Positions 19,234 through 63,394 of a stretch of 64,000 bases of DNA are shown here, one piece after another. Position 1 is the stretch's first letter, and each line of letters starts with the position of its first letter. Source of the stretch: Spirochaetota bacterium (GTDB taxonomy: Bacteria > Spirochaetota > UBA4802 > UBA5550). Made by a program: the position numbers and the translations under genes. A model generated the notes under the pieces. The model had not been told where the DNA came from and did no database searches. It saw only the letters and a list, made by a program, of their open reading frames with translations. Where the stretch lies: assembly GCA_009787025.1 (NCBI GenBank), contig WRGT01000071.1, positions 45 through 64,044 on the forward strand, written 5' to 3'.

Positions 19234-19379
19234 TAAAGTTTTACCCCTACAAGGCTAAAATTACATTTATTTTAAAGTTTTAGCATTGCAAGGGTAAAAC
19301 TTTTATTTTTTAATTTTTTTCCCTATACATAGCTAAAATTCTTGATTTTTTAAAGTTTTACCCTTATAAGGCATTTAAG
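19234..19379. repeat. four copies of a ~24-nt GTTTTACCC-N-GCTAAAA motif in mixed orientation upstream of the AAA ATPase gene
   Basis: Copies at about 19236-19263 (forward), 19274-19303 (palindromic/reverse), 19318-19342 (partial) and 19352-19379 (forward, ending at the start codon). Confidence 0.6.
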
Positions 19380-19387
19380 TGGGAAAT

Positions 19388-20605
19388 ATGATAGGGCGCG
19401 AACAATATATTAAAAATCTTTTGTCTTACAAAGACAATAAACTCATCAAAGTCATTACTGGACTCAGGCGGTGCGGCAAATCGACTTTGCTCCAATTATT
19501 TAAAGAGTATTTATTGCAAAATAATGTTCCAATAGACCATATAATAGATATAAATTTTGAATTGATGACATTTGATGACATCCGGGAATACAAACTATTT
19601 TATAAGCTGATAAGGGACAAGCTTACCGATAAAAAAAAATATTATTTATTGCTTGATGAAATTCAACAAGTCGAACATTGGGAAAAAGCAGTCAATAGCT
19701 TGAATGTGGAAACCGATATAGATGTTGATATTTATATAACAGGTTCTAACGCTCATTTACTCTCCTCTGATATTTCTACGCTATTGTCAGGCAGATATGT
19801 AGAAATCAAAATGCTTACTCTCTCTTTCAAAGAATTTTTACAATTCAATCATCTGCCGGAATTTAGCTTAGAGGAAAAATTTAATCAATACTTAAAATAC
19901 GGCAGCATGCCCGGCGTCGCAACCTTACCGCAAAACGACAATACAATATATCAGTTTCTCCTCGGCGTGTATAATTCTGTAATCGTAAAGGACATCGTAG
20001 CGCGCACAGGAAGTAAAGACACTGATCTGCTTGAAAAATTAGTCCGCTATGTCATCACCAATACTGGAAATATTATATCAAGCAACAAAATCAGCGGTTT
20101 TTTAACAGCTCAAGGGAGGGATGTGTCTGTAAAGTCCACAACAATCGCTTCATATTTGGACGCTCTCGAAAAAGCCTATATCGTTTATAAGTTAGACCGC
20201 TATGACATTAAAGGGAAAGAACAACTAAAAACGCTTTCCAAGTATTACGTTTCCGATACGGGAATACGCAACGCTCTTATGGGTTATGCCGACAGCGATA
20301 TAGGACGCGTTTTAGAAACGGTTATATACTTCGAACTGCTCAGACGCGGCTATCAGGTTTATATTGGCAAATGGTATAACAGCGAGGTAGATTTTTTTGC
20401 TGTCAGGCAAGACATAAAAAAGTATTATCAGGTTACATTGAGTTTAATGGATGAAAGCGTTAAAGAGCGTGAGCTTGCCTCGCTCAAAGCTATACCCGAC
20501 AATTATGAAAAGACAGTACTCTCTATGGATAAAACTTATGCGAGCGATCACGAAGGTATATGTTTTAAGAATATCATAGACTTTTTGTTAGAGGAGACCC
20601 GATAA
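19388..20605 (+). CDS. AAA-family ATPase with C-terminal DUF4143-like domain
   Basis: Walker A GLRRCGKSTL and Walker B LLLDEIQ. About 400 aa, the typical AAA_14 + DUF4143 layout. A GTG at 19379 is an alternative start. Confidence 0.8.
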   Translation: MIGREQYIKNLLSYKDNKLIKVITGLRRCGKSTLLQLFKEYLLQNNVPIDHIIDINFELMTFDDIREYKLFYKLIRDKLTDKKKYYLLLDEIQQVEHWEKAVNSLNVETDIDVDIYITGSNAHLLSSDISTLLSGRYVEIKMLTLSFKEFLQFNHLPEFSLEEKFNQYLKYGSMPGVATLPQNDNTIYQFLLGVYNSVIVKDIVARTGSKDTDLLEKLVRYVITNTGNIISSNKISGFLTAQGRDVSVKSTTIASYLDALEKAYIVYKLDRYDIKGKEQLKTLSKYYVSDTGIRNALMGYADSDIGRVLETVIYFELLRRGYQVYIGKWYNSEVDFFAVRQDIKKYYQVTLSLMDESVKERELASLKAIPDNYEKTVLSMDKTYASDHEGICFKNIIDFLLEETR

Positions 20606-20837
20606 GAGCGACCGATTCGGTCGCAAAACCAGCTGTCCAAATCGCAGGGACAAACAAAAAATAAAGGCTGGGGCTGTCTGATAAGCAACACGCAGGCAAT
20701 TGTATATGTTAAATAATCCCGTAGGGATGAATTGAGATGTTTATAAACGACCCGCTGGAATGTTTATTGTTCCAATCAGGCGCTGGAAAGATTGAGTGAA
20801 AAAATATTTTATTTTCTCATAAAACAAATCGCAGGTC

Positions 20838-21767
20838 TTAGCGAATAAAATCTTCAGGATTCAGAGCCTGCCCCCCTTTCCTTATCTCAAAGTGAAGGTG
20901 CGGACCTGTAACTTTTCCCGTACTTCCAATCTTACCAATGAGATCGCCTTTTTTTACATCCTTGCCTTTTGGTGTTCCAATCTTTGACAGGTGGCCGTAA
21001 TAGGTTGCCAAATCTGCGCCGTGCTGTATAATGATGAGATTCCCATAACCGCTGTTATTATATCCTGCATTAACGACTTCACCTTTTTCAGCAGCATAAA
21101 CAGGAGTCCCTTCAGGCGCTGCAATATCTACGCCCTTGTGAAATGAATTCATCTTTTTTGTAACAGGATCAACCCTGTAACCGAATTTACTTGATAGTTT
21201 TCCTGATGCAGGGATGATCATGTTCCAGTCGGTCTTGCCTGAGTCGCTGTCTTTCTCCGAAGGAATACTGTGAGAAACATAAGCGCCAAAGACCCATCCC
21301 TCATCGCCATTATCTTTTTTTATAAGGAGCCACGGTGATTGCATGGCGTTTATAACATCAACTTTATCAGCTTGAAATAATATCTCAACCCTGTCCTTAA
21401 ACTTTAACTTGCCTATAATCTCGCTTTTAGAATCTCCTTCGGATCTCATATTCAGCGAATCGGTATTCACATAGCCGTAAATTTTCGGAGGGATAGCTCC
21501 GGTGTAATGATAACCTGCATTCACAATCCCTGTTGCCAGATCTACATCAAGGGGAATGTCAAACGACACCTGTTCGTTAGGTATGCCGTCTCTGAACTCT
21601 TTTAGAAAGGAATTAAACTCCTTTAATATTGCATCACGTTTTTTTAAATCTGAGGTTTTCTGTTTTTCTACATCCTGCTTGTGCTGCTTAGAATATCTAT
21701 TTGCTTTTATGGTATCTGATAGCGGAATTAATATAACAAAAAAAATTAAAATGAATATTTTCTTCAT
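20838..21767 (-). CDS. M23-family peptidoglycan endopeptidase with SH3-like domain
   Basis: HKGVDIAAPEGTPVYA and GPHLHFEI motifs. N-terminal signal peptide. Confidence 0.88.
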   Translation of the reverse strand: MKKIFILIFFVILIPLSDTIKANRYSKQHKQDVEKQKTSDLKKRDAILKEFNSFLKEFRDGIPNEQVSFDIPLDVDLATGIVNAGYHYTGAIPPKIYGYVNTDSLNMRSEGDSKSEIIGKLKFKDRVEILFQADKVDVINAMQSPWLLIKKDNGDEGWVFGAYVSHSIPSEKDSDSGKTDWNMIIPASGKLSSKFGYRVDPVTKKMNSFHKGVDIAAPEGTPVYAAEKGEVVNAGYNNSGYGNLIIIQHGADLATYYGHLSKIGTPKGKDVKKGDLIGKIGSTGKVTGPHLHFEIRKGGQALNPEDFIR

Positions 21768-35200: not shown

Positions 35201-36316
35201 ATGAAACAGACTAATTCGTATAAACAAAAGATATTTTTTTATTTGTCGGCAGTAATATTTTTATCATTAATTATTTCTTGCGGAGGTTTCTCTAAATTAA
35301 GTAACAGTAATATACCAGTAGATATTTATGTTGGCGGAAACAGCGGAGGAAAATACTCTGATGATAGAGTTGCGGTATATTGGAAGAATGGCGAAATGAT
35401 ACCGCTTGAAACAAAGCGTTCAAATGTTTTATCTATTGCTGTTGCAGGCAACGATGTATATATGGGCGGATATTATATAGATGGATATACCATTCAAGCA
35501 GATGGTTATAATGGTATCCCAAGAGCGTGCTATTGGAAGAACGGCAAGCGTGTAAGTTTAAGCAATGCAAAATACGGTTCGTCGGTTTATGATATATTTG
35601 TGTCAGGTAATGATGTATATGTATGCGGGTGGATTAGCAATAGAGAAGATGAAATATCCAGCGGCTATTGGAAGAATGGTAAATGGGTTGGTTTGGTTAA
35701 AGCCAAAGATGGTTCGTGGCTTGTGTCGATATTTGTGTCCGGTGATAATGTATATGCCTGTGGGCGTAGTAAAAATAGTGATGTAAAATGGAGGCCGGCT
35801 TATTGGAAGAATGGTGAATGGATTGAGCTTCCATCTCTTAATGAAAAAAAGGATGCATTTGCTAATTCAATATTTATAGCCGGAAATGATGTATATTTGG
35901 GCGGACATAGTTATAATAATTCAGGAATTAATATAGCCTGCTATTGGAAGAATGGTAAATTAATTGCGCTTCCGTCTCTTAGCGAAAATAAGGATGCATC
36001 TGTTTGTTCAATATTTATGTTAGGCAATGATGTATATTTTGGCGGATATAGTTATGATAATTCAGGAATTAGTATAGCTTGTTATTGGAAAAACGATAAA
36101 ATAATCCCATTATTGTTATCTGAGTCTAAATGGTCAAGCGTGAATTCAATATTTGTATTTGGAAGAGATATATATGCAGTCGGGCTCATTCAAGGCAGTG
36201 ACGGTTTTGATATTCCCGGTTATTGGAAGAATGGCGACTGGGTGAAGTTAGATGCAAAAGGGTACTACCCTTCAGCTAGTTCAATAGTTGTTGTTCCAAG
36301 ACCAACGGTTCAATAG
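35201..36316 (+). CDS. lipoprotein with seven YWKNG repeats (predicted beta-propeller)
   Basis: Lipobox LIISCGG. Seven ~45-aa repeats ending (A/C)YWKNG(K/E)x(I/V)xL. Two adjacent repeats are about 80 percent identical at DNA level. Confidence 0.7.
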   Translation: MKQTNSYKQKIFFYLSAVIFLSLIISCGGFSKLSNSNIPVDIYVGGNSGGKYSDDRVAVYWKNGEMIPLETKRSNVLSIAVAGNDVYMGGYYIDGYTIQADGYNGIPRACYWKNGKRVSLSNAKYGSSVYDIFVSGNDVYVCGWISNREDEISSGYWKNGKWVGLVKAKDGSWLVSIFVSGDNVYACGRSKNSDVKWRPAYWKNGEWIELPSLNEKKDAFANSIFIAGNDVYLGGHSYNNSGINIACYWKNGKLIALPSLSENKDASVCSIFMLGNDVYFGGYSYDNSGISIACYWKNDKIIPLLLSESKWSSVNSIFVFGRDIYAVGLIQGSDGFDIPGYWKNGDWVKLDAKGYYPSASSIVVVPRPTVQ

Positions 36317-38499: not shown

Positions 38500-40248
38500 A
38501 TGAACAGATATAAACTAACAGATTGGCTTCCTACAACAAAAAAAGAAGCATTGCTTAGAGGATGGGACGATTTAGACGTCGTCTTATTTACAGGCGATGC
38601 ATACATAGACCATCCCTCATTCGGAAGCGCAGTAATAGGACGAATTATTGAGAGCATGGGATTTAAGGTTGCAATGGTGCCTCAACCCAACTGGCAGGAT
38701 GATCTCCGCGACTTTAAAAAGTTTGGCGTACCCAACCTGTTCTTTGCTGTTACATCGGGCTGCATGGATTCCATGATAAATCACTATACTGCAAATAAAC
38801 GATTAAGAAAAGACGACTCATATACTCCCGGCGGTAAAGCAGGATTTAGACCTGACTATGCCGTATCGGTATATTCATCCATTCTAAAAAAACTGTTCCC
38901 CGATGTACCGATTATTGCAGGCGGCGTAGAAGCGTCACTGAGAAGATTTACACACTATGATTATTGGAGCGACTCACTTAAGCCTTCCATAATATCCGAC
39001 GGTTCTATAGACCTTTTAGTATATGGTATGGGAGAAAAACCGATTATTGAACTTCTTGAATTAATGAAAAAGGGCGTGCCGTTTACATCTCTTAAAACAG
39101 TACATCAAACAGCTATAAAAGTACAGAGCCGGGATATGATTCCAATAAATAAAAATTGGGAAGATATGGAATTACACTCTCACGAGGAATGTCTTTTGGA
39201 GAAAAAGAAGTTTGGAGAAAATCACATTATCATTGAGAGATATTCTTTAAATGATAATACAAGGCTTATTCAAAGATACGGAGATTCATATATTATAATA
39301 AATCCAAAACAGAAAGAGTCTCACAGCGACAATATAGATACAGCCTTTGACCTTCCATATACGCGTCTTCCTCACCCTAAATATAAAGATAAGGGCGTTC
39401 CTGCATATGATATGATACGCCATTCAATTACGCTTCACAGGGGATGTTTCGGAGGATGCAGTTTCTGTTCAATAACAATGCACCAAGGTAAAAGAATACT
39501 AAACAGAACAGAAAAATCGATATTGCAAGAATTGAAAAAAATAACGGAACTGGAAGATTTTAAAGGATATATATCAGACATGGGCGGACCAACTGCAAAC
39601 ATGTACATGATGAAAGGCGAAGACCAGTCTAAGTGTAATAAGTGCCTCAAGCCTTCATGTTTGTTCCCGAATATTTGCGGCAATCTTGTTTATGATCATA
39701 AACCGTTAATAGATATATATTCAAAGAGTGAAAAAACTAACGGGGTAAAAAAAATATTCGTATCAAGCGGAATAAGATACGACCTGATACTCAGCTCCGA
39801 CCATAAAAAAAGCGAAAGATATTCATGTATGGAGTACATTGACAGAGTTGTCAGAAACCATACCTCAGGGAGATTAAAAGCCGCTCCAGAGCATACATCC
39901 GACCATGTACTTAAACTTATGAGAAAACCGTCATATACTCTGTTTGAAAAATTCAAATCAATATTTGATAAAATCTCAAAAGAAGCAGGACTAAAGCAGC
40001 AGATCATTCCATACTTCATATCGTCTCATCCCGGATCAAAAATTGAGGATATGGCGGAACTTGTCGCTGTTACAAAAAAGTCAAGGTATAAGTTGGAACA
40101 GGTACAGGACTTTACGCCAACGCCAATGACTCTGTCGTCAACGATTTATTACACAGGGATTGATCCATATACCGGATATGAAGTTTATTCTGCAAAGAGC
40201 AAGAAGGAGAGAGATGCTCAGCGGAGGTTGATTTTTTGGTGGAAATAG
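38500..40248 (+). CDS. ygiQ: YgiQ-family radical SAM protein (UPF0313)
   Basis: N-terminal LPTTKKEALLRGWDDLDVVLFTGDAYIDHPSFG and the CxxxCxxC motif CFGGCSFC. 582 aa. Confidence 0.85.
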   Translation: MNRYKLTDWLPTTKKEALLRGWDDLDVVLFTGDAYIDHPSFGSAVIGRIIESMGFKVAMVPQPNWQDDLRDFKKFGVPNLFFAVTSGCMDSMINHYTANKRLRKDDSYTPGGKAGFRPDYAVSVYSSILKKLFPDVPIIAGGVEASLRRFTHYDYWSDSLKPSIISDGSIDLLVYGMGEKPIIELLELMKKGVPFTSLKTVHQTAIKVQSRDMIPINKNWEDMELHSHEECLLEKKKFGENHIIIERYSLNDNTRLIQRYGDSYIIINPKQKESHSDNIDTAFDLPYTRLPHPKYKDKGVPAYDMIRHSITLHRGCFGGCSFCSITMHQGKRILNRTEKSILQELKKITELEDFKGYISDMGGPTANMYMMKGEDQSKCNKCLKPSCLFPNICGNLVYDHKPLIDIYSKSEKTNGVKKIFVSSGIRYDLILSSDHKKSERYSCMEYIDRVVRNHTSGRLKAAPEHTSDHVLKLMRKPSYTLFEKFKSIFDKISKEAGLKQQIIPYFISSHPGSKIEDMAELVAVTKKSRYKLEQVQDFTPTPMTLSSTIYYTGIDPYTGYEVYSAKSKKERDAQRRLIFWWK

Positions 40249-40308
40249 AATTTTCTCTTGACTTTTGTATATATTCATGTATATACTATTCATAGGAGAA
40301 TTGAAGAG

Positions 40309-40539
40309 ATGCTTACAACAAAAGTTTTCAAAAGTGGGAATAGTCAGGCAATATTTATTCCAAAGGAATACCAAATTGACGCCGACGAGCTATTTATCAA
40401 TAAAATCGGCAATACTATAGTTATTTTCCCAAAAAACGATCCATGGGAAATATTTAAGGAAAGCCTCACTGGTTTTTCGGATGATTATTTTGTTGATGGT
40501 AGAAATCAACCTAAAATACAAGAACGGGAAATAGAATAA
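40309..40539 (+). CDS. vapB: AbrB/SpoVT-type VapB antitoxin
   Basis: MLTTKVFKSGNSQAIFIPKEY, the looped-hinge-helix signature. ATG 40309 follows AGGAG. Overlaps the vapC start. Confidence 0.8.
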   Translation: MLTTKVFKSGNSQAIFIPKEYQIDADELFINKIGNTIVIFPKNDPWEIFKESLTGFSDDYFVDGRNQPKIQEREIE

Positions 40540-40934
40540 TGTATCTATTGGATACAAATATTTGTATTTACATCATAAATAAACGTCCCTCTAAAATAAT
40601 AGATAAAATAAGCAGCTTGAATCCATCAGAAATAAAAATATCATCAATAACCATGGCAGAAATGGAATATGGAGCATCAAAAAGTGACAATCGGGAAATG
40701 AATAGAAACGCATTAACAAGATTTCTGTCATCATTTGAAATTATCAATTTCGATCCAAAAGATGCAGAAATTTATGGAATAATTAGAGCCGAATTAGAAC
40801 GGAGTGGAAATATTATTGGACCATATGATATGCAACTTGCAGCTCAAGCATTAAGATGGGACTATATTTTTGTAACCAATAATACAAAAGAATTTCAAAG
40901 AATCAATAAGTTGAAATTAGAAAATTGGATATAA
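40539..40934 (+). CDS. vapC: PIN-domain VapC toxin
   Basis: MYLLDTNICIYIIN with the first acidic PIN residue, plus later D/E residues. 131 aa. Confidence 0.85.
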   Translation: MYLLDTNICIYIINKRPSKIIDKISSLNPSEIKISSITMAEMEYGASKSDNREMNRNALTRFLSSFEIINFDPKDAEIYGIIRAELERSGNIIGPYDMQLAAQALRWDYIFVTNNTKEFQRINKLKLENWI

Positions 40935-45324: not shown

Positions 45325-45699
45325 TTATGCGAAGTCGCGCTTTCTATTTATATAGTCTTTTAGTTCTTCAATGTTTTCCAATTCTTTTAATAATTCCTGT
45401 ATGGAATTTTTGGATATTGCCCATATCCTTTCTGCCAATATTTCTCCATAGTCATGTGCCAATTTATTCCTTAATCCTATTATATTCCCCCACGGTATAT
45501 TTACCATATTATCTTGAGTCTCTTTACTTATTTTATTAGCGGCTTGTCCTATAATTTCCAATTCTCTTTCTACCGCCAATTTTCGCATTTTGTCTTTTTC
45601 AAATTCATAAAATCCTATTCCTTTTGTGAATTCTTCAATATCCATAATGCAATCAACAATATCTATAAAAAATGATAAATCATTTTCACTAAGCAACAT
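45325..45699 (-). CDS. hepT: HepT (DUF86, HEPN-type) toxin
   Basis: Rx4-6H motif RNKLAHDY. Overlaps the upstream MNT gene. Confidence 0.8.
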   Translation of the reverse strand: MLLSENDLSFFIDIVDCIMDIEEFTKGIGFYEFEKDKMRKLAVERELEIIGQAANKISKETQDNMVNIPWGNIIGLRNKLAHDYGEILAERIWAISKNSIQELLKELENIEELKDYINRKRDFA

Positions 45700-46012
45700 A
45701 TATTATTTCCCGTGTTGACAGTATTCTTTTTTTCCGTATAGGATTTTTCAAAGATTCTTTTTCTACAATATCAACTTCCCGATTTAGTAATAGGGAAAAT
45801 TCTTTTTCCAATTCCATTATATCAAACAAAGTTATTTTTGAATTATGCTCAAATGATACAAGAATATCTACATCACTGTTTTGTGTAAAATCATCCCGAA
45901 TTGATGAACCAAATATTGACAATTCGATTATATAATATTTTTTACATAAATTTACTATATCATTATAATTAAAAAGAATACCTTTTTTCTGTAACTTTTT
46001 TATTGTTTCCAT
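45689..46012 (-). CDS. mntA: MNT nucleotidyltransferase antitoxin
   Basis: IFGSSIRDDFTQNSDVDILV (the GSxxR...DxD motif). Confidence 0.8.
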   Translation of the reverse strand: METIKKLQKKGILFNYNDIVNLCKKYYIIELSIFGSSIRDDFTQNSDVDILVSFEHNSKITLFDIMELEKEFSLLLNREVDIVEKESLKNPIRKKRILSTREIIYVA

Positions 46013-46198: not shown

Positions 46199-46678
46199 CT
46201 ACGCTTTTGCTTTCGCCTTTGATAATTCCATGCGCATTCTCTTTCTCTCTTGCGCTTCGTTATTTCTTCTTTTTTCTTCATCAGTCTCTATAATAATCTG
46301 ATTTATTGTTTTAGGCTTATGATTTTCATCAAGGGCAACAAATGTTAAATATGCAGAACCTGTATGCCTCACATTTCCAGTAACGACATCCTCAGCTTCC
46401 ACTCTTACGCCGATCTCCATAGACGTTTTCCCTACATAATTGATGCTTGCGCTTACTCTTAAAAGATTGCCAATATATACGGGAGAATGAAAATCCACTC
46501 TGTCAATAGATGCCGTAACAACATTCGCACCTGTATGCCTCATTCCTACTACGCCTGCAGTATTGTCAATGAGCTTTAAGATAACGCCTCCATGAACATT
46601 ACCTGCCAAGTTGGCATCCTGCTGAGTCATCTGCTGAACTACAGTAACGCTGGTTGCTTTCACTTTTTTGCTTTCCAT
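46199..46678 (-). CDS. hotdog-fold acyl-CoA thioesterase
   Basis: NLAGNVHGGVILKLID motif. Start set at ATG 46678 after GAGG. Confidence 0.8.
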   Translation of the reverse strand: MESKKVKATSVTVVQQMTQQDANLAGNVHGGVILKLIDNTAGVVGMRHTGANVVTASIDRVDFHSPVYIGNLLRVSASINYVGKTSMEIGVRVEAEDVVTGNVRHTGSAYLTFVALDENHKPKTINQIIIETDEEKRRNNEAQERKRMRMELSKAKAKA

Positions 46679-46790
46679 AATAAACCTCAAAAAAATTATT
46701 TAAATTTTGAATATATTATCTCATTATAAATATAATAAGTATGAGAATATTTGTCAATAAATATTGAGAGAGAAAAAGCGGATTAATTCA

Positions 46791-48722
46791 CTATAAGTTT
46801 ATCAGTATCTTTTTCGATTCCTTAGCAGCATTTGCTCCTGTACTTTTTTTAAAAATTGAAACTATCCCGGCAGAGTCCGAACCGCCGATAAAAATCCCAT
46901 ATCCATAGTGATTATTTGTCCCTGCAATAACAGTTCCGGTTTTGCCCCATAAACTCTTTTGAGATTCGCTGTCTTTATCTTTTGCAGTACCGTCTATAAA
47001 TGTTTTATGCAGAGCGTTAAAAATCATAACAAATTTTTCCGAAGAATGTTCCGTATTTTTTGCATAAATAAATCTGTTCAATTTCATTAAACCGGTTACG
47101 CTTATTGTTACATTAAAATTTAATCCGGCTAATATATATGGAAAATCGGATTTGTTATTAATCTCAGGTATATGCAATTTAATGCCATACTCTGCAATAA
47201 ATTTAGAAAGCCATCTATTAAAGTCGTCCCTGTCTATGTATCTATAGAGCGATGCAAAATATTTATTACACGAATGAGACAGAGCATTAACCAAGTTCAT
47301 TCTGCCGTGACCTTTTTTATACCAGCAATACTCAGGCATAGCTTTATCATCGTGCTTATCCGTGCATGTATATATATGATTATAAAACAGATCTGTTCGT
47401 TCATACGCCAAGTATATTGCCGCAAATAATTTGAAAATAGAACCGCACGGTATAATCCTGTTTCTGAAAGAATCTTTTAAATTACTTCTAATTGTTTCTT
47501 CGGTAGTATAATCAAAGACAATATAGTGAAATCTATAATCAACGGTATCATTATCTGCTTTGTATTGAATATCCGGATAGTAATGTTCAAGTATCTCATA
47601 ACGCGAATAGCCTCTCTCTGCAAGTTGAACCGCTCCTTCAAGACTCATGCCTGCGCCATGCCCAAGCCCGGAGCCGTTGAATATATAATCACCGTTTTTA
47701 TTTGCTAAAACATAATTGTTGCTTTTAATAAAATTCCAGCCCTTTACTCTATTGATTTTAAGACGAAAACTTTCAGGAGATACCTCTTCATCGCCTGCGC
47801 TTGTTGAAATAAATATTAACTCCCTCTCTCTGTCATACTTAATATCTTTTAATGAGACCGGTCTCTCCTTATACAATATATCCATGAGTTCAATCTCAGC
47901 GATAGACGCTTCCCAGCGCTTAAAATTATTTCTGCTCAGTACAAAATTCTCCGAAAAGATTACATCCTTTGGCGGCGGATAGACTCTCTCCTTATTATTG
48001 AATATATATTCGGTAAAGAGTCTGCCGCCGCTTGACGAATGAAAAAAGAGTCCGTCCTTTATATTATCTGTTTTAACGGATATGTCATCGCGAAAAGTCT
48101 TTCCGCTTAATCCTCTATATGTCTGGCAGCACGTAAGATCGCAAAAGTCATATCCATTGTGTTTGTTCTTCAAATATGGGAATTCTGATCTTGCTTTAAT
48201 AATATACGCAAGAGAGTAAAGCGCTTCTAAATTCTGCTCGGGAATATAACCAAGTTCGCTCCATGCCGAATCTAAGGCATATTGATCAACATCCTCTTCA
48301 ATTGAAAATTCAACCAAGTCTTTATTTGCATTGATAAAAAGCGGGAGCGGATATGTTCGCTTCTCTTCATTTAATTCAAATATAAAGAGAGACCTTATTT
48401 TTTTTGGATAGATTATTAAATTACTGTTTTTAATAATTCTATCATCGCCTTTTATTATAAAAGAATTGTTTACAAAAGAGAGAGATAATTTTTTACAATA
48501 AACTCTTCTGCCGTCTATATCAATATCGCTTCCGCCGGGGAACGACAATTCTATAGAACCTATATCTCCGCTCTTTAGTAATTTTACATATTTTAAAAAA
48601 ATAAGTATTTTTACTTTACTGCTCTTCTCTGACTTTTCGCCGTTTAGTCCCGTAAGAAGAGCAGTAAAAATGATAACACAAAACAGACAAAGGCTAAGAT
48701 TCCCTTTATTTCTGTTTCTCAT
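46791..48722 (-). CDS. membrane-anchored SpoIID/LytB-like domain fused to a penicillin-binding transpeptidase-like domain
   Basis: N-half motifs: WSELGY, DFCDLTCCQTYRG, FHSSSGG (SpoIID pattern). C-half motifs: SIFK (SxxK), SCN (SxN), KTGT (KTG). 17-nt overlap with the A2M gene. Confidence 0.65.
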   Translation of the reverse strand: MRNRNKGNLSLCLFCVIIFTALLTGLNGEKSEKSSKVKILIFLKYVKLLKSGDIGSIELSFPGGSDIDIDGRRVYCKKLSLSFVNNSFIIKGDDRIIKNSNLIIYPKKIRSLFIFELNEEKRTYPLPLFINANKDLVEFSIEEDVDQYALDSAWSELGYIPEQNLEALYSLAYIIKARSEFPYLKNKHNGYDFCDLTCCQTYRGLSGKTFRDDISVKTDNIKDGLFFHSSSGGRLFTEYIFNNKERVYPPPKDVIFSENFVLSRNNFKRWEASIAEIELMDILYKERPVSLKDIKYDRERELIFISTSAGDEEVSPESFRLKINRVKGWNFIKSNNYVLANKNGDYIFNGSGLGHGAGMSLEGAVQLAERGYSRYEILEHYYPDIQYKADNDTVDYRFHYIVFDYTTEETIRSNLKDSFRNRIIPCGSIFKLFAAIYLAYERTDLFYNHIYTCTDKHDDKAMPEYCWYKKGHGRMNLVNALSHSCNKYFASLYRYIDRDDFNRWLSKFIAEYGIKLHIPEINNKSDFPYILAGLNFNVTISVTGLMKLNRFIYAKNTEHSSEKFVMIFNALHKTFIDGTAKDKDSESQKSLWGKTGTVIAGTNNHYGYGIFIGGSDSAGIVSIFKKSTGANAAKESKKILINL

Positions 48723-51700
48723 CTTGAACGTCTAATGCCGCAGGCAGAGACCACCCTTGAATACTCTCTTCATACATACATTCAATCCTCGAAGGTCTCA
48801 TCATAAAAGACCCGGGAAGCTCAGCGCGCATTATATATGCTACTTCATATTCTCTATTTTTTTCGATATTAGTAAAAAAGAATACCATCCTGTTATCTCT
48901 TCTCTCAATATGTGAGTATGATTGATATTCGTTATAGGCGCTCTCTTTCACTACCTCAAAACCTGCCGGGAGGAAATCCTGCAAAATCATATATCCGAAC
49001 TTATCCACCGCTTTAAATTTAATCCTTACTAATAATTCATCTCCCACATTTATCTTACTCTTATCATCAATATTCTGAGGCACAAGGTACTCCTGCATCT
49101 TCATATCCTTAACCCTGTTTAGATATGATATTTCTCTCCTTGCAGTAACTCCATTAGAAAGAGCCTCTATGCCGCTCTTCTCGGATTTAAATAATGAGAA
49201 TACACCCTTAGGTTTAAAGTATAGAATACCTCTTAATGCTGCGGAATATGTTGTATGCGAAGAATCTGTTCCTGTCGCAGTGAGTTTATAGCTGTCTGAT
49301 TTTTTATTTTTATCTAATTTAATCTCCTTCTTAAGAGAACCCGGCGCGGAGTTAACGTTGTATGATATTTTCTCTAACCTCTCTCCATTCAATGAAAATT
49401 CAACTTCACCGGACTCTTTATAGCTCATACTATTTGCCGTAAGGTAATCGCAGAGTGCAAGGATTACTGTCCCCGATTCCTTCGTTGAACCCCAGTAGCC
49501 GTCTTTAAATCTCTTAGAGATCGATGCAACAGCCTGAGAGACTAAGGAAGATTTATCGCCGGAGCTTACTAAAGCGGACAGTACATGGGCTGTAATCTCT
49601 GTGTTGCTTCCGGGCCAATCCCATGACTGACCCTGTGCCGCGCTCCAGTATATGCCGTAAGAATCACGCTGTGAAGTTTCCTGTATCTTTTTATTAAGCA
49701 GCTTTAAAGCATCATTAACTTCAGCTTCTACATCCCTCTGTAAAACGCCCTTCCCTTTAATATTGTTTACAGCTTTAATCAAATTAGCCGCTTGATACGG
49801 ACCTAAATCCTTAGAATTTGCTACCCTTTTAAATACTGTGTAATTAAACTTTTTATATAATGAGTTTATGTAGGTTAAATAAGCTAACTCGTTGCTGCTC
49901 ATCTTACTCGGAGATTCAAATATACGATTCAAAGCGGTCTGCCCATTATTTAATACGCTATCGCTTACTTTATATCCGAATCCCTTTGCTTTAAAAAGTG
50001 AAAATATTGCAAAGCCTGTAGTATAGACATTACCTCTATCGCCTTCCCACCAGCCCCATGTGCCGTCGTAGTTTTGAGCCTTTTCCAAGCGGCTGATACC
50101 CTCCGGTATCATTGTATTAAGGTTCTTTTTAAGTTCATCGGGAATCACTTGAGAATAGTTCCCGGAAGAGAGAAGGTTTTGCATTGCAAGTATAGGTATT
50201 ATTTTATTGATTGTTTGTTCAACACATCCGTATGGATACCTGCTCAAGTATTCTACCGCTTTAATCATCTGCATAACAGGCGACGGATTAACATAAAGTA
50301 TTATCTCCTCAGGGACAAATTCAAAATCGTCGCTCCCTTTAACAGGTTTCAGCACAATCTCCCTGTTATTCTGCATATCTCCTGCGCCTGATATTACATA
50401 GCTTAAACCGCGTTTTTCAACAGGAATTGTATGTTTAACCGCGTCGCCCTTATTCCCGGATGTTGATTTAAATTCAAGAGCAACTGCGCTTTTATCTTCG
50501 GGAACCGTAAATGTATAACTTTTACTTGCAGAACCAAACTCAGGGAGACTCATCTTAAAGTCTTTATCAGCCTTAACAACCTTGCCGTCAATCTTCATCT
50601 CTGTTGTTATTTCACTCATGCCAGAATCTGTGTTATTATTAACAATCCCTATAATTCCTATTTTATCTCCTTCAACAAAAAATCTGGGCTTACCTATCCG
50701 TGCAATAAGATCCATAGTAGATAGAAATTTTTCCCTCACCTCGCCCATTCGTCCTTTAAGATCATGACCGCGCGCAGTAAGCCTCCATGTTGTAAGGTTA
50801 TCCGGAAGAGTAAATGAGATAGCAGCTTTTCCATCCTGGTCTGTCTTGATATTTGCAGTCCAGAAGGCAGTATCTTTAAAATTTTCTCTGACCTTAACCT
50901 CTCCGTCTTTTCCGCTTCCTGCTAAAAGCGTTATGGGATATGAATATGTAGTAATGACCCAGTTTGAAATCTTTGAATAGAAGAAACCTGAAATTTCAGG
51001 CGTTGCATCATATCTGATATAATAGATAGATTCATCTACCGCTGATAATGAAAGGTCTGCAGATACGGGTTTACCCGCAGAATCGACTACAGTAATACCT
51101 ATATTAGCTTTATCGCCCGGAAGATATTTTGCTTTATCAGGCTTAAGCGCAATGTCAAGCTTAACGTCTTCTACAGGTATTGTAACTTCGCTTCTTGTAG
51201 TATATAGTGCTCTCCCTCTCTGCATAACGCCGTTTATAAAAAGATTCGGAGCAAGTTTTGTATCTATATCAAATGTTACGGACACAGCATGTTTATCCAT
51301 TTTAATGACCTTTGTTTGATAAACATCTCGTCCTTCAAGTGACAGCATAACGTAAGAATCCGTAAATTTACTTTTAACCAAACATGTAATCTTGCCGCTC
51401 TTCTCCAGAGACGTTTTATTGAGGGTAACCTCAAGTTCTCTATATTTTGCGTCTTCGCTGCCGCCATAGTCGCTGTATATCCATATAACCTTCGAGCCTG
51501 TTATATTATTATTCCTTGAGTCAACACCTTGCGCTACAAGATTATACTCGCCATAGCCGTTAAAGTCGCGGGGAAGAGAAATCACGCCGTTACCATCCTT
51601 ATCGGTAGTTATCTTCTTTGAAAAGAATGGTCTGCTGTCCTGCACATAGACCCTTTGAACAGGTTTCCAAATATACTTAAACAGTTTTATTTCAAGGCTA

Positions 51701-54075
51701 GCGCTGACCGGCTTACCTGCATGCGTTGCAGTAAATACTTTAATATTCTTATCGCCCTTAGCATCAAAATAGTTTTCCTCAGGATTGAGTTTTATAAAGT
51801 ATTCTCCGCGTCCCACTCTGACAGTCTTACTTGTTGTTATTGTTATATTCGATTTATCCGTAACAGACGCCTCAAGCGTAATCTCCCTGTCGTATGGATA
51901 ATTTCCGGATGCAACTTTTATCAGAGCAGCGCCCCCTGCATCCGCATACTTCTCACCTTCAAGCTTAATCCTTGAATATGAACTGCTGCGGTTATATGTC
52001 TCGTCATAGCTGTTGTCCATATCTTCAATCTTTTTTTCAAAAATCGTATATTTAACAAGAGCGCCGTTAAGCGGAGCGCCGAAAAAATATTTAGCCTCAA
52101 CTTTAAACTCTGCCATATCGCCATTGATGAAAAAGTCCTTTGACGGAATTATATCAATTTTAAATTCCGGTTTTCTATACTGCTCAACATAAAATGACCC
52201 GCTCCCATAAAGGTTATCCTCCGAAAAACCGGCTTTGATAGTAAAATATCCAAGGCTAAAATTCTGCGGTATCTGTACTGATCCGTTTGCAGTTCCCCAC
52301 TCATCAAGGTTCAAACGACCTTCGGCGAGCTTCCCATCGGAACTATATGTCTGTATTGAGTAGTATAGAGTCTTGTTTTTAATCGGTTTAAATTTACCGT
52401 CGAGCGTCTTGGCGATTATCTTAAAGAAGAGTTTGTCTCCGGCTCTGTAAACCGGTCTATCGGTGTATATATACAGTTTATCCTTTTCCGAAGCATAATA
52501 GTTTGACGAACCGCTTGCGCAGATAGAGTAACTCCCCTCATCCGATACTGCAAGCATATACATCTCTTTTTGCGACGAAAGTTTTCCTGTGTATATGCCG
52601 TTCTCATCTGTTTTCCCTTTGGCTAAAACCGTTACAGGCAGATTTTCCAAAAGGAATAATTCGCGGGCTCCATCATAATCATATTCATTATTATTATCAT
52701 CTCTATCCTTGAGCTTTTCATTGTAAAATATAACGGAAATGTTTTTCAAAGGCTTATTCAGCACAAGGTCGGTAACATACGCAGTAACAGACTCAGGCGA
52801 TCTTTTAAGAACTACGCCGACATTTGTAACTGTAAAAAACTGGCGCGCCGAAGTATTCCCGCTGCCCTTTACTTCAATACAGTAACCGCCGGCAGGGAGA
52901 GGTTTATTTACCTTAACCGTATAATACATCCACTCATACGGATCAAAATTTTTGACAGATTCATCCCACTCCGTAACAGTCTTTAAACCCGAAGCGCCGG
53001 GATTTAAGGATTCCGGATCTCTTGCTCCTCCTATGAGTATGCTCGCAGGTACCTGATATATTTTAACATGAACAGTATCAAGCCTGAGACTTCTAAGATT
53101 AAACTCAATCTCATTTCCCGGAGTAAATGTATATCTGTAAGAATAGACCCTGATCTCGGGAGATTTTGCCTCAATATCAAAGTTAAGTCCGCTTACATTC
53201 TTACCTTCGGTTACGGTTATATTGGTCTTTTCGATTTTATTAAATCCCTGATGGGATAGTATTAAAGTATATGTCCCGGGTTTAATATCTTCCAGTTGAA
53301 ATGATCCGTCCTGAAAACTTTCATTAGAGTAGTTATATCTTCCCGATGCCGTAACATTTATATTTACAGCAGGTGAATTAATATCCTTGATATTAATCTT
53401 CCCTGATATTACTGCAGGCTTATACATGACCATAGCCAGATTAAATGATTCACCCTCTTTTATATTATTCAGACTTGCGCTCTCTGCAATATACCCGGAT
53501 TTACTGAATGTAACCATATAGTGTCCGGAAACGAGCTTATCTATTTTATAATTTCCATTGTTGTCGGATTTAACAAATCTTGGATTGAACGTAGATGAGT
53601 TGTAATAATAATCTCTGTTTACCTTAATCTCAACATCGGATAATGGCTTTCCGCTGCTGTCTTTAATAGTTCCGGTTATAATAGATTCGGGCTTAAGCCT
53701 TATATCATTCTTCACACGCGATAGACTGGCAGTTTCGGTATATGAAACATATCCGGGAGCCGTAATCTCAATATCATATTTTATATAGGCTATAAAATCA
53801 TTTATCTTATAATAACCGTTTCTATCCGTTTCTGTTTTATAATAGCCCACACCCCTGCTTGCATTCTTGAACTCAACCGTTGCGCCTTTAACAGGCTTGC
53901 GTGTACTGTAATCGGTTATAGTTCCTTCAATGTACGATTTTTCAAGCTTAGGTAAATTGTCCGTATAAACAGTATTGCCATCTTCGTTTACTACTCCGTC
54001 AGAAAACGCGCTGTCTATAAATATACTCCCGATAAAAAGTAAACAAGAAACAAATAATAATTTCAATCGTTTCAT
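48706..54075 (-). CDS. bacterial alpha-2-macroglobulin, thioester-containing (YfhM/ECAM-like)
   Basis: About 1790 aa with the thioester motif GCVEQ in RYPYGCVEQT. Three N-terminal CarboxypepD_reg-like domains. Signal/lipobox-like LLFVSC. Start set at ATG 54075 after GGAGGAG. Confidence 0.85.
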   Translation of the reverse strand: MKRLKLLFVSCLLFIGSIFIDSAFSDGVVNEDGNTVYTDNLPKLEKSYIEGTITDYSTRKPVKGATVEFKNASRGVGYYKTETDRNGYYKINDFIAYIKYDIEITAPGYVSYTETASLSRVKNDIRLKPESIITGTIKDSSGKPLSDVEIKVNRDYYYNSSTFNPRFVKSDNNGNYKIDKLVSGHYMVTFSKSGYIAESASLNNIKEGESFNLAMVMYKPAVISGKINIKDINSPAVNINVTASGRYNYSNESFQDGSFQLEDIKPGTYTLILSHQGFNKIEKTNITVTEGKNVSGLNFDIEAKSPEIRVYSYRYTFTPGNEIEFNLRSLRLDTVHVKIYQVPASILIGGARDPESLNPGASGLKTVTEWDESVKNFDPYEWMYYTVKVNKPLPAGGYCIEVKGSGNTSARQFFTVTNVGVVLKRSPESVTAYVTDLVLNKPLKNISVIFYNEKLKDRDDNNNEYDYDGARELFLLENLPVTVLAKGKTDENGIYTGKLSSQKEMYMLAVSDEGSYSICASGSSNYYASEKDKLYIYTDRPVYRAGDKLFFKIIAKTLDGKFKPIKNKTLYYSIQTYSSDGKLAEGRLNLDEWGTANGSVQIPQNFSLGYFTIKAGFSEDNLYGSGSFYVEQYRKPEFKIDIIPSKDFFINGDMAEFKVEAKYFFGAPLNGALVKYTIFEKKIEDMDNSYDETYNRSSSYSRIKLEGEKYADAGGAALIKVASGNYPYDREITLEASVTDKSNITITTSKTVRVGRGEYFIKLNPEENYFDAKGDKNIKVFTATHAGKPVSASLEIKLFKYIWKPVQRVYVQDSRPFFSKKITTDKDGNGVISLPRDFNGYGEYNLVAQGVDSRNNNITGSKVIWIYSDYGGSEDAKYRELEVTLNKTSLEKSGKITCLVKSKFTDSYVMLSLEGRDVYQTKVIKMDKHAVSVTFDIDTKLAPNLFINGVMQRGRALYTTRSEVTIPVEDVKLDIALKPDKAKYLPGDKANIGITVVDSAGKPVSADLSLSAVDESIYYIRYDATPEISGFFYSKISNWVITTYSYPITLLAGSGKDGEVKVRENFKDTAFWTANIKTDQDGKAAISFTLPDNLTTWRLTARGHDLKGRMGEVREKFLSTMDLIARIGKPRFFVEGDKIGIIGIVNNNTDSGMSEITTEMKIDGKVVKADKDFKMSLPEFGSASKSYTFTVPEDKSAVALEFKSTSGNKGDAVKHTIPVEKRGLSYVISGAGDMQNNREIVLKPVKGSDDFEFVPEEIILYVNPSPVMQMIKAVEYLSRYPYGCVEQTINKIIPILAMQNLLSSGNYSQVIPDELKKNLNTMIPEGISRLEKAQNYDGTWGWWEGDRGNVYTTGFAIFSLFKAKGFGYKVSDSVLNNGQTALNRIFESPSKMSSNELAYLTYINSLYKKFNYTVFKRVANSKDLGPYQAANLIKAVNNIKGKGVLQRDVEAEVNDALKLLNKKIQETSQRDSYGIYWSAAQGQSWDWPGSNTEITAHVLSALVSSGDKSSLVSQAVASISKRFKDGYWGSTKESGTVILALCDYLTANSMSYKESGEVEFSLNGERLEKISYNVNSAPGSLKKEIKLDKNKKSDSYKLTATGTDSSHTTYSAALRGILYFKPKGVFSLFKSEKSGIEALSNGVTARREISYLNRVKDMKMQEYLVPQNIDDKSKINVGDELLVRIKFKAVDKFGYMILQDFLPAGFEVVKESAYNEYQSYSHIERRDNRMVFFFTNIEKNREYEVAYIMRAELPGSFMMRPSRIECMYEESIQGWSLPAALDVQDEKQK

Positions 54076-54102
54076 TCTATTCTCCTCCATAAAAAACTGT
54101 CT

Positions 54103-54696
54103 TTATTTAATTGTAACTCCTTTGAATTTATAAAATCTACACTGGGAATTACCTGTAAGTTTCATTACTCTGGAAATTGTCCTGTACTCTGCAGGAACTA
54201 TTACCAGCTTTGATAAATCTTCACACTCAATAAAAAGACCATAGTTTGATATGTCAACACTATTAATATCATTGACAGGCTCAATATTAGACGCTATTGT
54301 TAAAATTATCTCCGTATCTTTAAATTCATGTTTTTCAAGGGGTTCATATCTCGGATCATACGACAAAGCTCCCTTAATATAATCCCTTAGTATGGCGTAG
54401 AAAGAACTTTTATTGTGATTAAAAGCGCCAAAACATCCGCGGACTTTTCTATTTTTTATAAGAGTAATAAACAAGCCTGTACAGTCAGGCTGCGCAGGCA
54501 AGGATATGTTAAGGTCAGGGGGAGTTTTGTCTTTGCTGAGAATGTTCCGGGCTGTATCTCTCATCCACTCTGCGAGTTGAGCTTTTTCTGCCGAATGAGA
54601 AAACTCTTCCCATCTGTCAATACATGAATCTGAGGCTGATATATTAAAGACTGCGAGAATACAAATTAAAGCGGCTGTTAAATTCTTGGCTTTCAT
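54103..54696 (-). CDS. exported AMMECR1-domain protein
   Basis: LFITLIKNRKVRGCFGAF and DPRYEPLEKHEF match AMMECR1 core motifs. N-terminal signal peptide AALICILAVFNISA. Confidence 0.65.
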   Translation of the reverse strand: MKAKNLTAALICILAVFNISASDSCIDRWEEFSHSAEKAQLAEWMRDTARNILSKDKTPPDLNISLPAQPDCTGLFITLIKNRKVRGCFGAFNHNKSSFYAILRDYIKGALSYDPRYEPLEKHEFKDTEIILTIASNIEPVNDINSVDISNYGLFIECEDLSKLVIVPAEYRTISRVMKLTGNSQCRFYKFKGVTIK

Positions 54697-54710
54697 TTTT
54701 CAATTGTTTT

Positions 54711-54872
54711 CTATGAATAATTCAAAAAATGTAACACTTGAGCCGCTGCTGTCATTTCTATAATGTCAGGTTCCTTTATTTTGCATAAATTCAACAACGG
54801 CATTACATCTCTAAATAATTTATCTATCCGTGATATCTCATGTTCTACTTTTATTCTTGCGGCTTCATCCAA
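54711..54872 (-). pseudogene. truncated HEPN-type partner of the upstream MNT gene
   Basis: 53-codon ORF (TTG start, 8-nt overlap with the MNT stop): LDEAARIKVEHEISRIDKLFRDV...AAAQVLHFLNYS*. It ends before any Rx4-6H motif. Confidence 0.45.
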
Positions 54873-55158
54873 TTTGAATAACCTCACCTATTCTATCCAA
54901 CATTGAATAAAAATCAGAATTTGCATCAAAATTTACCAAATCAATGTTATTTTCCAAGTCAAAATATAATTTAGAATATACTTCAAAAAATTTACCTTTG
55001 GGAAGCCCTTTAATACCAATATCAATATCCGACCCATCATGGTTTTTTCCGGTTACCAGCGAACCAAATAAATAAATTGATTGGCATCCTTCATTTTTGA
55101 GTATGCTTATGGCTATTTCTATATCTTTTTGATATTTTTGAGGAATATTGAGTTTCAT
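54865..55158 (-). CDS. MNT-type nucleotidyltransferase
   Basis: LFGSLVTGKNHDGSDIDIGI motif. 97 aa. Confidence 0.75.
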   Translation of the reverse strand: MKLNIPQKYQKDIEIAISILKNEGCQSIYLFGSLVTGKNHDGSDIDIGIKGLPKGKFFEVYSKLYFDLENNIDLVNFDANSDFYSMLDRIGEVIQIG

Positions 55159-62509: not shown

Positions 62510-63394
62510 ATGGATTATGTAGGACATGTAATAAGACCGCCGTCCGAAGCATATAGTATGATTATACAGGTTACAGTAGGATGCTCGCATAACATGTGTA
62601 CTTTTTGCGGTGCATATAAAGACCTGCAGCCAAAGTTTTGGATAAAGGATTGGGAAACAGTAAAAAAAGATATAGATGAGGCGTCAAGTTACAGGTATGG
62701 TTTCACAAAGGCATTCTTGGCTGACGGCGATGTGCTGATACTCCCGACAGATGACATTTTAAAAATAATGAACTATATCAAACAAAAAAATAAATCCATT
62801 GAAGCTATAAATGTATACGGCAATTCTAAGGCGATTTTACGAAAGACTTTGGAAGAACTTAAAGAATTAAAAAATGCAGGACTATCTATTGTATATCAAG
62901 GCATAGAAAGCGGAAACAAAGATGTGCTTAGAAAAATAAGAAAAGGCGCATTCCCTGATAATATGAGAGAAGCTGCCGCAAAGGTAATAGAATCCGGGAT
63001 TAAACTTTCTCAGACAGTGCTCTTAGGCATTGCCGGAAAAGAGATGTCCCATGAACATGCACGGGATACGGGAAAACTCCTTGGTGAAATGTCTCCGGAC
63101 TTTGCCTCTGCGCTGACTGTAATGATTCTCCCGAATACACCGCTTTATAAAGAGTACAAAGAGGGTAAATTTATTCTTCCTGATAAATTTGGTCTTCTTG
63201 AAGAATTGAAGATAATTATAAAGAACATGAATGTAAAAAGAAATTGTTACTTTACATCTAATCATGCATCAAATTATCTTCCAATAAGGGCTAATCTGCC
63301 AAAAGACCAGAGCTCTGTATTAAAATTGATTGATAAGGTTATTGATTCTAAAGATGAAAAAATTCTAAAGCCGGAACACATGAGAGCGTTATAG
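62510..63394 (+). CDS. radical SAM protein (Cx4Cx2C variant)
   Basis: VGCSHNMCTFCGAY near the N-terminus. 294 aa. Confidence 0.7.
   Translation: MDYVGHVIRPPSEAYSMIIQVTVGCSHNMCTFCGAYKDLQPKFWIKDWETVKKDIDEASSYRYGFTKAFLADGDVLILPTDDILKIMNYIKQKNKSIEAINVYGNSKAILRKTLEELKELKNAGLSIVYQGIESGNKDVLRKIRKGAFPDNMREAAAKVIESGIKLSQTVLLGIAGKEMSHEHARDTGKLLGEMSPDFASALTVMILPNTPLYKEYKEGKFILPDKFGLLEELKIIIKNMNVKRNCYFTSNHASNYLPIRANLPKDQSSVLKLIDKVIDSKDEKILKPEHMRAL

Follow-up and report, generated by a model that had tools for sequence, protein, structure and literature searches.

A conserved gene cassette of Spirochaetota encoding an exported AMMECR1-like protein, a thioester alpha-2-macroglobulin and a SpoIID::transpeptidase fusion

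Why would a bacterium encode, in three consecutive genes, an exported AMMECR1-like protein, a thioester alpha-2-macroglobulin (A2M) and a SpoIID-type enzyme fused to a penicillin-binding transpeptidase? This question is raised by a locus at positions 46791-54696 of a 64,000-nt stretch of DNA (referred to below as the window) from contig WRGT01000071.1 of a Spirochaetota bacterium (assembly GCA_009787025.1). Bacterial A2Ms are regarded as a rudimentary periplasmic immune system, a view resting largely on the pairing of A2M with PBP1C. The analysis presented here indicates that the three genes belong to a real, conserved and apparently undescribed cassette, both wider and larger than this single window shows. 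Because of its domain content, and by analogy with the A2M-PBP1C pair, the cassette is read here, with a probability of roughly 0.55, as a periplasmic protease trap-and-repair module.

All three genes are transcribed from the minus strand, and their open reading frames (ORFs) lie exactly where an earlier reading made without database searches (the sequence-only reading) had placed them:

54103-54696, minus strand: gene of the exported AMMECR1-like protein (197 aa).
48706-54090, minus strand: gene of the thioester A2M (1794 aa from the first ATG; 1789 aa from the methionine at residue 6, M6).
46791-48722, minus strand: gene of the SpoIID::transpeptidase fusion (643 aa), defined from the ORF, about 100 full-length homologue clusters and an AlphaFold2 (AF2) model.

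The stop codon of the AMMECR1 gene precedes the A2M start by 12 nt (first ATG) or 27 nt (M6), while the A2M and fusion genes overlap by 17 nt (48706-48722). Since a GGAGGA site is located 7 nt upstream of M6 (MKRLKLL, nt 54075), this codon is the likelier start of A2M. NCBI entries exist for the AMMECR1 and fusion proteins, under names no more specific than "AMMECR1 domain-containing protein" and "penicillin-binding transpeptidase domain-containing protein"; the 1794-aa form of A2M is not among the proteins in the collection. A single predicted operon encoding three exported proteins is the best explanation of this arrangement.

Pfam analysis of the A2M protein revealed, from the N- to the C-terminus, three CarboxypepD_reg domains followed by bMG3, MG2, A2M_BRD, A2M, TED_complement and bMG10, each of the latter six scoring above its gathering threshold. 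The principal features (all on the minus strand) are:

53191-53931: three N-terminal CarboxypepD_reg domains (Pfam, 1e-34).
52189-52479: MG2 domain (Pfam).
51019-51435: bait-region domain (Pfam).
50617-50871: A2M domain (Pfam).
about 49411-50313: thioester domain (TED; Pfam).
50215-50229: thioester motif G-C-V-E-Q (residues 1288-1292), aligned with YPYGCLEQT of ECAM in the TED.
48769-49068: bMG10 domain (Pfam).

This series bears out the description of a protein of about 1790 aa with the motif RYPYGCVEQT and three extra carboxypeptidase-regulatory-like domains at its N-terminus. The nearest sequence match in the PDB is Escherichia coli YfhM/ECAM (5a42, 7.6e-20), whose AYPYGCLEQT aligns with RYPYGCVEQT inside the TED, so that the CVEQ sequence occupies the same place in the thioester domain as CLEQ of ECAM. 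Residues C1289 and Q1292 are the predicted thioester-forming pair, and all 60 A2M genes found linked to SpoIID or transpeptidase (TPase) genes retain CxEQ. The full MG/bait/TED/MG10 architecture, with an intact CxEQ motif, has thus been shown for this protein. A2M also has a signal peptide. A lipoprotein reading of its LFVSC sequence is not favoured for the clade of the window, since the Cys is not conserved there; clear lipoboxes are found in those clades that contain a VanW gene (see below).

A thioester could also serve attachment. According to this alternative, the A2M-like protein would not be a protease inhibitor, and its thioester would bind to the wall of the bacterium itself or to the surface of prey or host, as in Gram-positive thioester-domain adhesins, with the partner proteins processing the attachment. 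The strict conservation of the thioester, the resemblance of the three Ig-like CarboxypepD_reg domains to the stalks of surface proteins and the low similarity to ECAM (E 7.6e-20) would all suit such a role. However, the protein has every part of the A2M architecture, bait-region domain and MG10 included, as do the protease-trapping ECAM and Sa-A2M, and the export signal is a Sec-type signal peptide or a lipobox, with no outer-membrane or secretion signal beyond it. An adhesin-like function is therefore considered very improbable, and protease trapping is retained as the preferred role of the A2M protein.

The product of the first gene belongs to a family that is conserved from archaea to humans and for which, to our knowledge, no function is known. 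Its signal peptide and its VRGCFGAF and DPRYEPL motifs had been recognized by the sequence-only reading, and each of them was confirmed:

54634-54696, minus strand: signal-like N-terminus (residues 1-21; MKAKNLTAALICILAVFNISA, then SD).
54427-54441, minus strand: RGCFG within VRGCFGAF (residues 86-90), an invariant motif.
54337-54357, minus strand: DPRYEPL (residues 114-120).

The N-terminus is typical of a signal peptide (MKAK, a hydrophobic core, and ISA followed by SD), and among about 40 homologous neighbours nearly all retain a hydrophobic N-terminal segment. The protein matches Pfam AMMECR1 (PF01871) at 1.7e-17 (63.9 bits, cutoff 25), and residues R86-G87-C88-x-G90, D114, R116 and E170 are invariant across 31 homologues. 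An AF2 model made from 31 homologues (pLDDT 84.4) was compared with the PDB using Foldseek, and the significant matches were limited to the AMMECR1 structures 1zq7, 1wsc and 1vaj. Both the sequence matches and the model point to a genuine AMMECR1 fold of the 197-aa protein.

Identity with protein A of the AmmeMemoRadiSam system was ruled out: the TIGR04335 score is 49.1 bits (cutoff 99), and neither a Memo-like nor a radical SAM gene is adjacent, the neighbours of the AMMECR1 gene in the window being the genes of A2M and of an MNT-type nucleotidyltransferase. The window does contain two radical SAM genes, one of the YgiQ type with a Radical_SAM_N domain (38500-40248, plus strand) and one small (62510-63394, plus strand). 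Each is separated from the AMMECR1 gene by more than 6 kb, lies on the opposite strand and is not of the AmmeMemoRadiSam type; they do not rescue the canonical AMMECR1 context.

The third protein had been described as an anchored polypeptide combining a SpoIID-like N-half with a C-half that carries the penicillin-binding triad SIFK / SCN / KTGT. Its features (minus strand) are as follows:

48639-48722: signal peptide or signal anchor (residues about 8-26; helix 8-26 in the AF2 model).
47538-48617: SpoIID/LytB-type lytic transglycosylase half (residues about 36-395; profile, fold and a weak TIGR02669 match).
48246-48263: WSELGY (residues 154-159), with E156 as the candidate catalytic residue.
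48123-48149: DFCDLTCCQ (residues 192-200), part of the Zn-site motif H188...C194-x3-C198-C199.
48024-48044: FHSSSGG (residues 227-233).
46794-47525: compact penicillin-binding transpeptidase domain (residues about 400-643; Pfam, profile and fold).
47430-47441: SIFK (residues 428-431), the catalytic SxxK (S428-x-x-K431).
47265-47273: SCN (S484-C485-N486).
46932-46943: KTGT (residues 594-597; K594-T-G-T).
residues C453, C466, H472 and C485: predicted Cys2-His-Cys Zn tetrad of the transpeptidase.

The SpoIID-like nature of the N-half was upheld by profile searches, by the AF2 model and by Foldseek, but not by the curated models: Pfam SpoIID (PF08486) gave no match to the fusion protein of the window, and the match to NCBIfam TIGR02669 (2.3e-16), at 60.5 bits, lies below the cutoff of 83.3. 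As neither threshold was passed, the assignment was based instead on a profile of the family, on the predicted structure and on its fold matches. (Among about 100 fusion homologues, PF08486 was matched by one, P0072.) A profile built from 45 homologues found SpoIID structures in the PDB at about 1e-13 (5txu/5i1t, 8e-14) and 1.7e-10 (4rwr), whereas a search with the single sequence aligned just the C-terminal GHG...HYY block of this half, the catalytic Glu requiring the profile. In the profile alignment E156, invariant in the 45 homologues, pairs with the Glu of "VVASEM" of Bacillus anthracis SpoIID. The putative zinc ligands H188, C194, C198 and C199 align with H134/C140/H145/C146 of Clostridioides difficile SpoIID, in which E101 is catalytic (PMC6221140). 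Across the family position 198 is Cys or His, while C194 and C199 are invariant in the 45 homologues.

The AF2 model of the fusion (pLDDT 90.7, pTM 0.88) forms one confident two-domain body. Its best Foldseek match is SpoIID (5i1t, E 1.1e-9, TM 0.63), with 4rwr also found; next in rank are C. difficile PBP3/SpoVD (7rd0, 7rcz) and PBP2 proteins, and the similarly sized MecR1/BlaR1 sensor domains are also matched. The SpoIID profile and fold matches are far beyond chance, and at the level of profile and model they confirm for the N-half a SpoIID fold in which the catalytic Glu and the Zn site are kept. The pTM value of 0.88 implies, for the modelled protein, that the SpoIID and transpeptidase domains are rigidly coupled.

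For the C-half the agreement with the sequence-only reading is more direct. Pfam Transpeptidase (PF00905; residues 420-608, 2.7e-7, 30.5 bits, cutoff 22.1) is the sole Pfam match of the fusion and exceeds its gathering threshold, and Foldseek recovers a penicillin-binding protein (PBP) fold. Residues S428, K431, S484, C485, N486, K594, T595, C453, C466 and H472 are invariant in the 45 homologues. C. difficile PBP3 (7rd0) is matched by the family profile at 3e-13, and the segment YxCtg...rCwkkkGHG...SCN falls on the published Zn tetrad; in Zn-binding serine PBPs this motif is made up of a pair of Cys/Asp residues, a His and the Cys of SXN (Sacco et al. 2022; PMC9334274). Judged from this alignment, the transpeptidase of the fusion reproduces the Cys2-His-Cys(SXN) tetrad of C. 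difficile PBP3/SpoVD as a predicted Zn site. A second SIFK (residues 622-625; 46848-46859, minus strand) does not represent the catalytic SxxK, and annotation from motifs could be led astray by it.

No pedestal (PBP dimerisation) domain, Transgly (GT51) domain or BiPBP_C domain was detected in the fusion with Pfam. The transpeptidase domain, of about 240 aa, has the size of the BlaR1/MecR1 sensor domains, and the region preceding it is SpoIID. Lacking both the pedestal and GT51, the fusion fits neither class A/C nor, strictly, class B of the PBPs. These observations bear on the earlier proposal that the GT51 module of PBP1C had been replaced by a SpoIID module. In functional terms the proposal stands; as an evolutionary statement it does not, for the transpeptidase is not derived from PBP1C. 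Its closest relatives are Zn-binding class-B PBPs (C. difficile PBP3/SpoVD, PBP2), and a comparison with the PBP1C ORFs of related loci gave no match at E<1e-5. A literal GT51 swap within PBP1C is ruled out by this lack of similarity together with the split genes found elsewhere (see below).

The distribution of the cassette was examined in two surveys. Clustering of the fusion family at 90% identity leaves about 100 clusters, and at 50% identity about 47 representatives, nearly all of 640-730 aa. When genomes, one per species, were surveyed with the fusion as the seed, 50 full-length loci were obtained, of which the 39 with at least 6.5 kb of upstream sequence were counted. AMMECR1 and then A2M lie directly upstream of the fusion in 33 of these 39, and in 25 of the 33 the first gene is one not present in the window, encoding a VanW-type L,D-transpeptidase. 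The carriers are uncultured Spirochaetota and several metagenome-assembled genomes (MAGs) labelled Smithellaceae/Syntrophaceae, one of them a closed 5.2-Mb chromosome. Conservation of the three-gene arrangement thus extends to dozens of related genomes, in which the flanks vary from locus to locus. None of the outcomes that the sequence-only reading had named as refuting its proposal was observed.

A metagenome survey seeded with the AMMECR1 protein identified 70 loci, with smaller denominators for VanW (56) and the fusion (27). A2M starts immediately after AMMECR1 in 66 loci, VanW just precedes AMMECR1 in 48/56, and the fusion follows A2M in 18/27. Given the 66/70 frequency, against 18/27 for the fusion and eight cassettes that end at A2M, the tightest pair is AMMECR1-A2M and not A2M-fusion; the fusion often makes up the third member but can be separated from the pair.

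The fourth gene, not foreseen in the sequence-only reading, is present upstream in most relatives. The VanW neighbours keep an invariant Cys, His, Asp triad, which is that of the VanW L,D-transpeptidases, a family first defined in 2024 (PMC11348318). According to the tree, the clade of the window has lost VanW. Export signals are conserved across relatives on all four proteins, AMMECR1, VanW, A2M and the fusion.

Orphan fusion genes (L005/L046, beside flagellar export genes, and L027, L034, L050 and L053) are scattered over the tree, which indicates secondary separations of the fusion from A2M. In L005 (JGI Ga0116143_10000001, 10001-21375) the orphan gene lies just 5' of an MptE-like gene and of a cluster for flagellar export containing flbD, fliL, fliM/N, fliO-R, flhB and flhA. 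This hints that in some spirochaetes the fusion enzyme may serve flagellar or wall biogenesis.

Such orphans, like the AMMECR1-A2M cassettes without a fusion, would be expected if the fusion were a general peptidoglycan remodeller (in growth, shape or flagellar insertion) whose adjacency to A2M is merely inherited synteny. This explanation is judged improbable. The linkage persists at 30-35% protein identity amid entirely different flanks; the fused form is linked in two phyla, with split genes and reverse fusions in further phyla; and the scatter of the orphans over the tree speaks for secondary separation. A functional association of the fusion with A2M, as the trap-and-repair module assumes, remains the preferred interpretation.

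The forms found in other phyla differ in gene structure. WOR-3, Myxococcota, other Deltaproteobacteria-labelled MAGs and unclassified lineages contain a shorter thioester A2M gene followed by a Transpeptidase gene (product of about 300 aa) and then a SpoIID gene, the separate Transpeptidase and SpoIID proteins both scoring above the Pfam thresholds. Split-gene loci of this kind (L063, L066, L067, L076, L077 and L082) come from WOR-3, Myxococcales and unclassified MAGs, and one of them also contains VanW and AMMECR1. A fusion of opposite order, TPase::SpoIID, was found in 10/10 proteins tested (from P0236-P0307), one of which (L084) directly follows an A2M C-terminus. The opposite domain order elsewhere means that the Spirochaetota fusion is not a simple read-through of split genes. 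Split genes and reverse fusions beside A2M are sequence evidence in favour of a functional coupling of the transpeptidase and SpoIID domains.

In the closed 5.2-Mb chromosome (OY821638.1, Smithellaceae-labelled; L004/L043, coordinates 1-12088) a classical A2M-PBP1C pair, its PBP1C having Transgly, Transpeptidase and BiPBP_C domains, adjoins VanW-AMMECR1-A2M(TED)-SpoIID::TPase on the upstream side, so that two A2M systems stand side by side on one strand. Separately, in L075 (Spirochaetia UBA12135, 596-7641) A2M, PBP1C and SpoIID genes occur in a row, and in L080 (Myxococcota) a SpoIID gene is divergent from an A2M-PBP1C pair. One sub-clade has a 71-aa LapA_dom (PF06305) membrane protein encoded between A2M and the fusion (L002, 9729-9944), and equivalent A2M-fusion gaps of about 280-350 nt are present in L024, L026, L029, L031, L033 and L037.

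How might these proteins act together? Defence and repair by A2M and a peptidoglycan enzyme is a standing hypothesis for Type I A2Ms (PMC5764988), and it is by analogy with this hypothesis that we infer the "envelope defence" function proposed in the sequence-only reading. In the trap-and-repair module (i) A2M would covalently trap peptidases that breach the outer membrane, once its bait is cut, (ii) the SpoIID half would clear damaged glycan strands without stem peptides, such stem-peptide-free glycan being the substrate of SpoIID (PMC6221140), (iii) the D,D-transpeptidase domain and, where present, the VanW L,D-transpeptidase would re-cross-link the sacculus, and (iv) the AMMECR1-like protein would act on or with A2M through the invariant Cys of its RGC motif, for example in folding, thioester protection or regulation. 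Direct action of the AMMECR1-like protein on or with A2M is the most likely of its possible roles, because of their near-obligatory adjacency and the invariant Cys. The more specific proposal that it is a dedicated A2M partner (protecting, forming or resetting the thioester, or gating activation) in a self-contained "trap, excise and re-cross-link" machine together with the fusion and VanW is a tentative one, and is rather doubtful as it stands.

Several points weigh against the trap-and-repair module. The A2M-PBP1C repair hypothesis is itself unproven. The SpoIID of sporulation requires amidase-denuded glycan (PMC6221140), and there is no amidase among the cassette genes; moreover, the SpoIID half fails the thresholds of the curated SpoIID hidden Markov models (HMMs). 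Where neither a glycosyltransferase nor a SEDS protein accompanies a transpeptidase, it is not obvious what would supply pentapeptide donors, and the transpeptidase of the fusion could instead be a carboxy- or endopeptidase. Linkage of the fusion is not obligatory, as 6/39 genome loci are orphans and 8/26 AMMECR1-A2M cassettes end at A2M with no fusion downstream. Finally, the carriers are all uncultured MAGs.

The same enzymes permit another explanation, in which they serve A2M rather than the damaged wall. Dedicated lytic transglycosylases open the wall for secretion systems and flagella, and L,D-transpeptidases tether Lpp; similarly, SpoIID might open the sacculus locally and the transpeptidases reseal it so that the A2M of about 200 kDa can cross or sit in it, or the transpeptidases might tether A2M, or its complex, covalently to peptidoglycan. 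A2M is very large; in many relatives it is a lipoprotein with a clear lipobox, which puts its starting point at the inner membrane. A glycan cutter and one or two cross-linkers are encoded in the cassette, but no enzyme that polymerises glycan, and a rigid two-domain fusion (pTM 0.88) would suit cut-and-reseal action; in addition, accessory proteins of the Mag system are known to bind A2M (PMC5764988). On the other hand, the E. coli-type A2M works with PBP1C and no lytic enzyme, and the fusion is not next to A2M in 8/26 cassettes. We know of no direct evidence for a linkage of A2M to peptidoglycan in any bacterium. Wall enzymes in the service of A2M are accordingly regarded as unlikely, though less so than the other alternatives, and the trap-and-repair module is preferred.

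The surroundings of the operon in the window appear unrelated to it. The GC content is about 35-40% across the region. Downstream lie genes of a 4HBT thioesterase and an MNT/HepT toxin-antitoxin pair, and upstream those of an orphan MNT nucleotidyltransferase, a DUF4143 ATPase and an oligoendopeptidase F. The features concerned are:

54697-54864, minus strand: upstream intergenic region (168 nt), the probable promoter region of the operon.
54865-55158, minus strand: lone MNT-like nucleotidyltransferase, just 5' of the AMMECR1 gene.
46199-46690, minus strand: 4HBT-type acyl-CoA thioesterase, adjoining the fusion gene.
45325-46012, minus strand: overlapping MNT/HepT pair of the toxin-antitoxin type.
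40258-40934, plus strand: MazE/AbrB-like antitoxin and PIN toxin.
35201-36316, plus strand: predicted lipoprotein (371 aa) with about eight degenerate "YWKNG(K/E)" repeats and no Pfam match.

The intergenic region contains one weak sigma-70-like match (54755-54728), which is a consensus match only, the total number of matches in the region being about that expected from shuffled sequences. Promoter and terminator scans of the locus remained at background level, with no excess of terminator-like sites. The 4HBT gene is syntenic in two relatives (L001, L006) and is probably an inherited neighbour rather than a member of the system. The 371-aa repeat protein looks, from its sequence, like a beta-propeller-type protein. 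No tRNA genes were found in the 64-kb window, and none of the three operon proteins matched a PADLOC model of anti-phage defence.

A second, independent and multi-phylum case in which a thioester A2M is paired with peptidoglycan enzymes makes the general connection of protease trapping to wall maintenance stronger. The wall chemistry implied beside A2M would be one of remodelling and excision (a glycan cutter with D,D- and L,D-cross-linkers), not polymerisation. AMMECR1 acquires a defined setting outside the cytoplasm and a partner that is nearly obligatory, which makes its role directly testable. Should it prove to be an A2M partner, this would provide a first biochemical handle on a universally conserved family and define a third class of bacterial A2M system. 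The SpoIID::PBP fusion, with predicted Zn sites in both halves, would extend the Zn-binding PBP class beyond Firmicutes sporulation.

Comparison with known systems begins with the parts. With protein A of AmmeMemoRadiSam the AMMECR1-like protein shares the AMMECR1 fold and the RGC(I/F)G motif, but it carries a conserved signal peptide and is tightly coupled to A2M. The VanW proteins, encoded 5' of AMMECR1 in most relatives though neither in this window nor in its closest clade, keep the Cys, His and Asp of the L,D-transpeptidases Ldt4/Ldt5 of C. difficile (PMC11348318); they differ in being small, single-domain, exported proteins without PG4 or G5. SpoIID and SpoVD/PBP3 of C. difficile and Bacillus are the closest solved relatives of the two halves of the fusion, in which the catalytic Glu and the Zn motifs are kept. 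The cassette, in contrast, occurs outside sporulation and joins both activities in one polypeptide, its PBP half has no pedestal, neither a SpoIIP amidase nor a SpoIIM partner accompanies it, and curated SpoIID HMM thresholds are not reached.

Two contexts of bacterial A2M have been described: Type I, with CxEQ and pbpC, and Type II, without CxEQ, in magABCDEF (PMC5764988). Within the library of papers searched, combinations of macroglobulin with SpoIID, AMMECR1, VanW or a lytic transglycosylase context gave no system of the present composition, in line with the sequence-only reading; for macroglobulin with AMMECR1 no description was found, and for macroglobulin with SpoIID none that was relevant. 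Searches on the function of AMMECR1 yielded nothing informative. As in Type II (Pseudomonas aeruginosa), the A2M gene is accompanied by genes for several further periplasmic proteins, with which A2M is possibly complexed; beyond this the cassette has no specific feature in common with mag. MagC is a peptidoglycan-binding NlpC/P60-like protein. Unlike MagD, which has no thioester, the A2M of the cassette has CxEQ, and none of the cassette genes was identified as belonging to a Mag accessory-protein family.

The likeness to Type I (E. coli yfhM-pbpC; Salmonella Sa-A2M) is closer, comprising an exported thioester A2M with CxEQ and MG/bait/TED/MG10 domains (PMC5764988), co-directional with a gene for a penicillin-binding peptidoglycan enzyme. 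That enzyme, however, has neither GT51 nor BiPBP_C, and instead has SpoIID and a compact, class-B-like, predicted Zn-binding transpeptidase; an exported AMMECR1 protein and usually also a VanW L,D-transpeptidase are added. The A2M itself has three extra N-terminal CarboxypepD_reg domains, is only a distant relative of ECAM and, in the clade of the window, apparently has no lipobox. A real PBP1C is present in few relatives only, and there it is partnered with another A2M. Beside the A2M-PBP1C pair and the mag operon, the cassette is a third conserved context of bacterial A2M.

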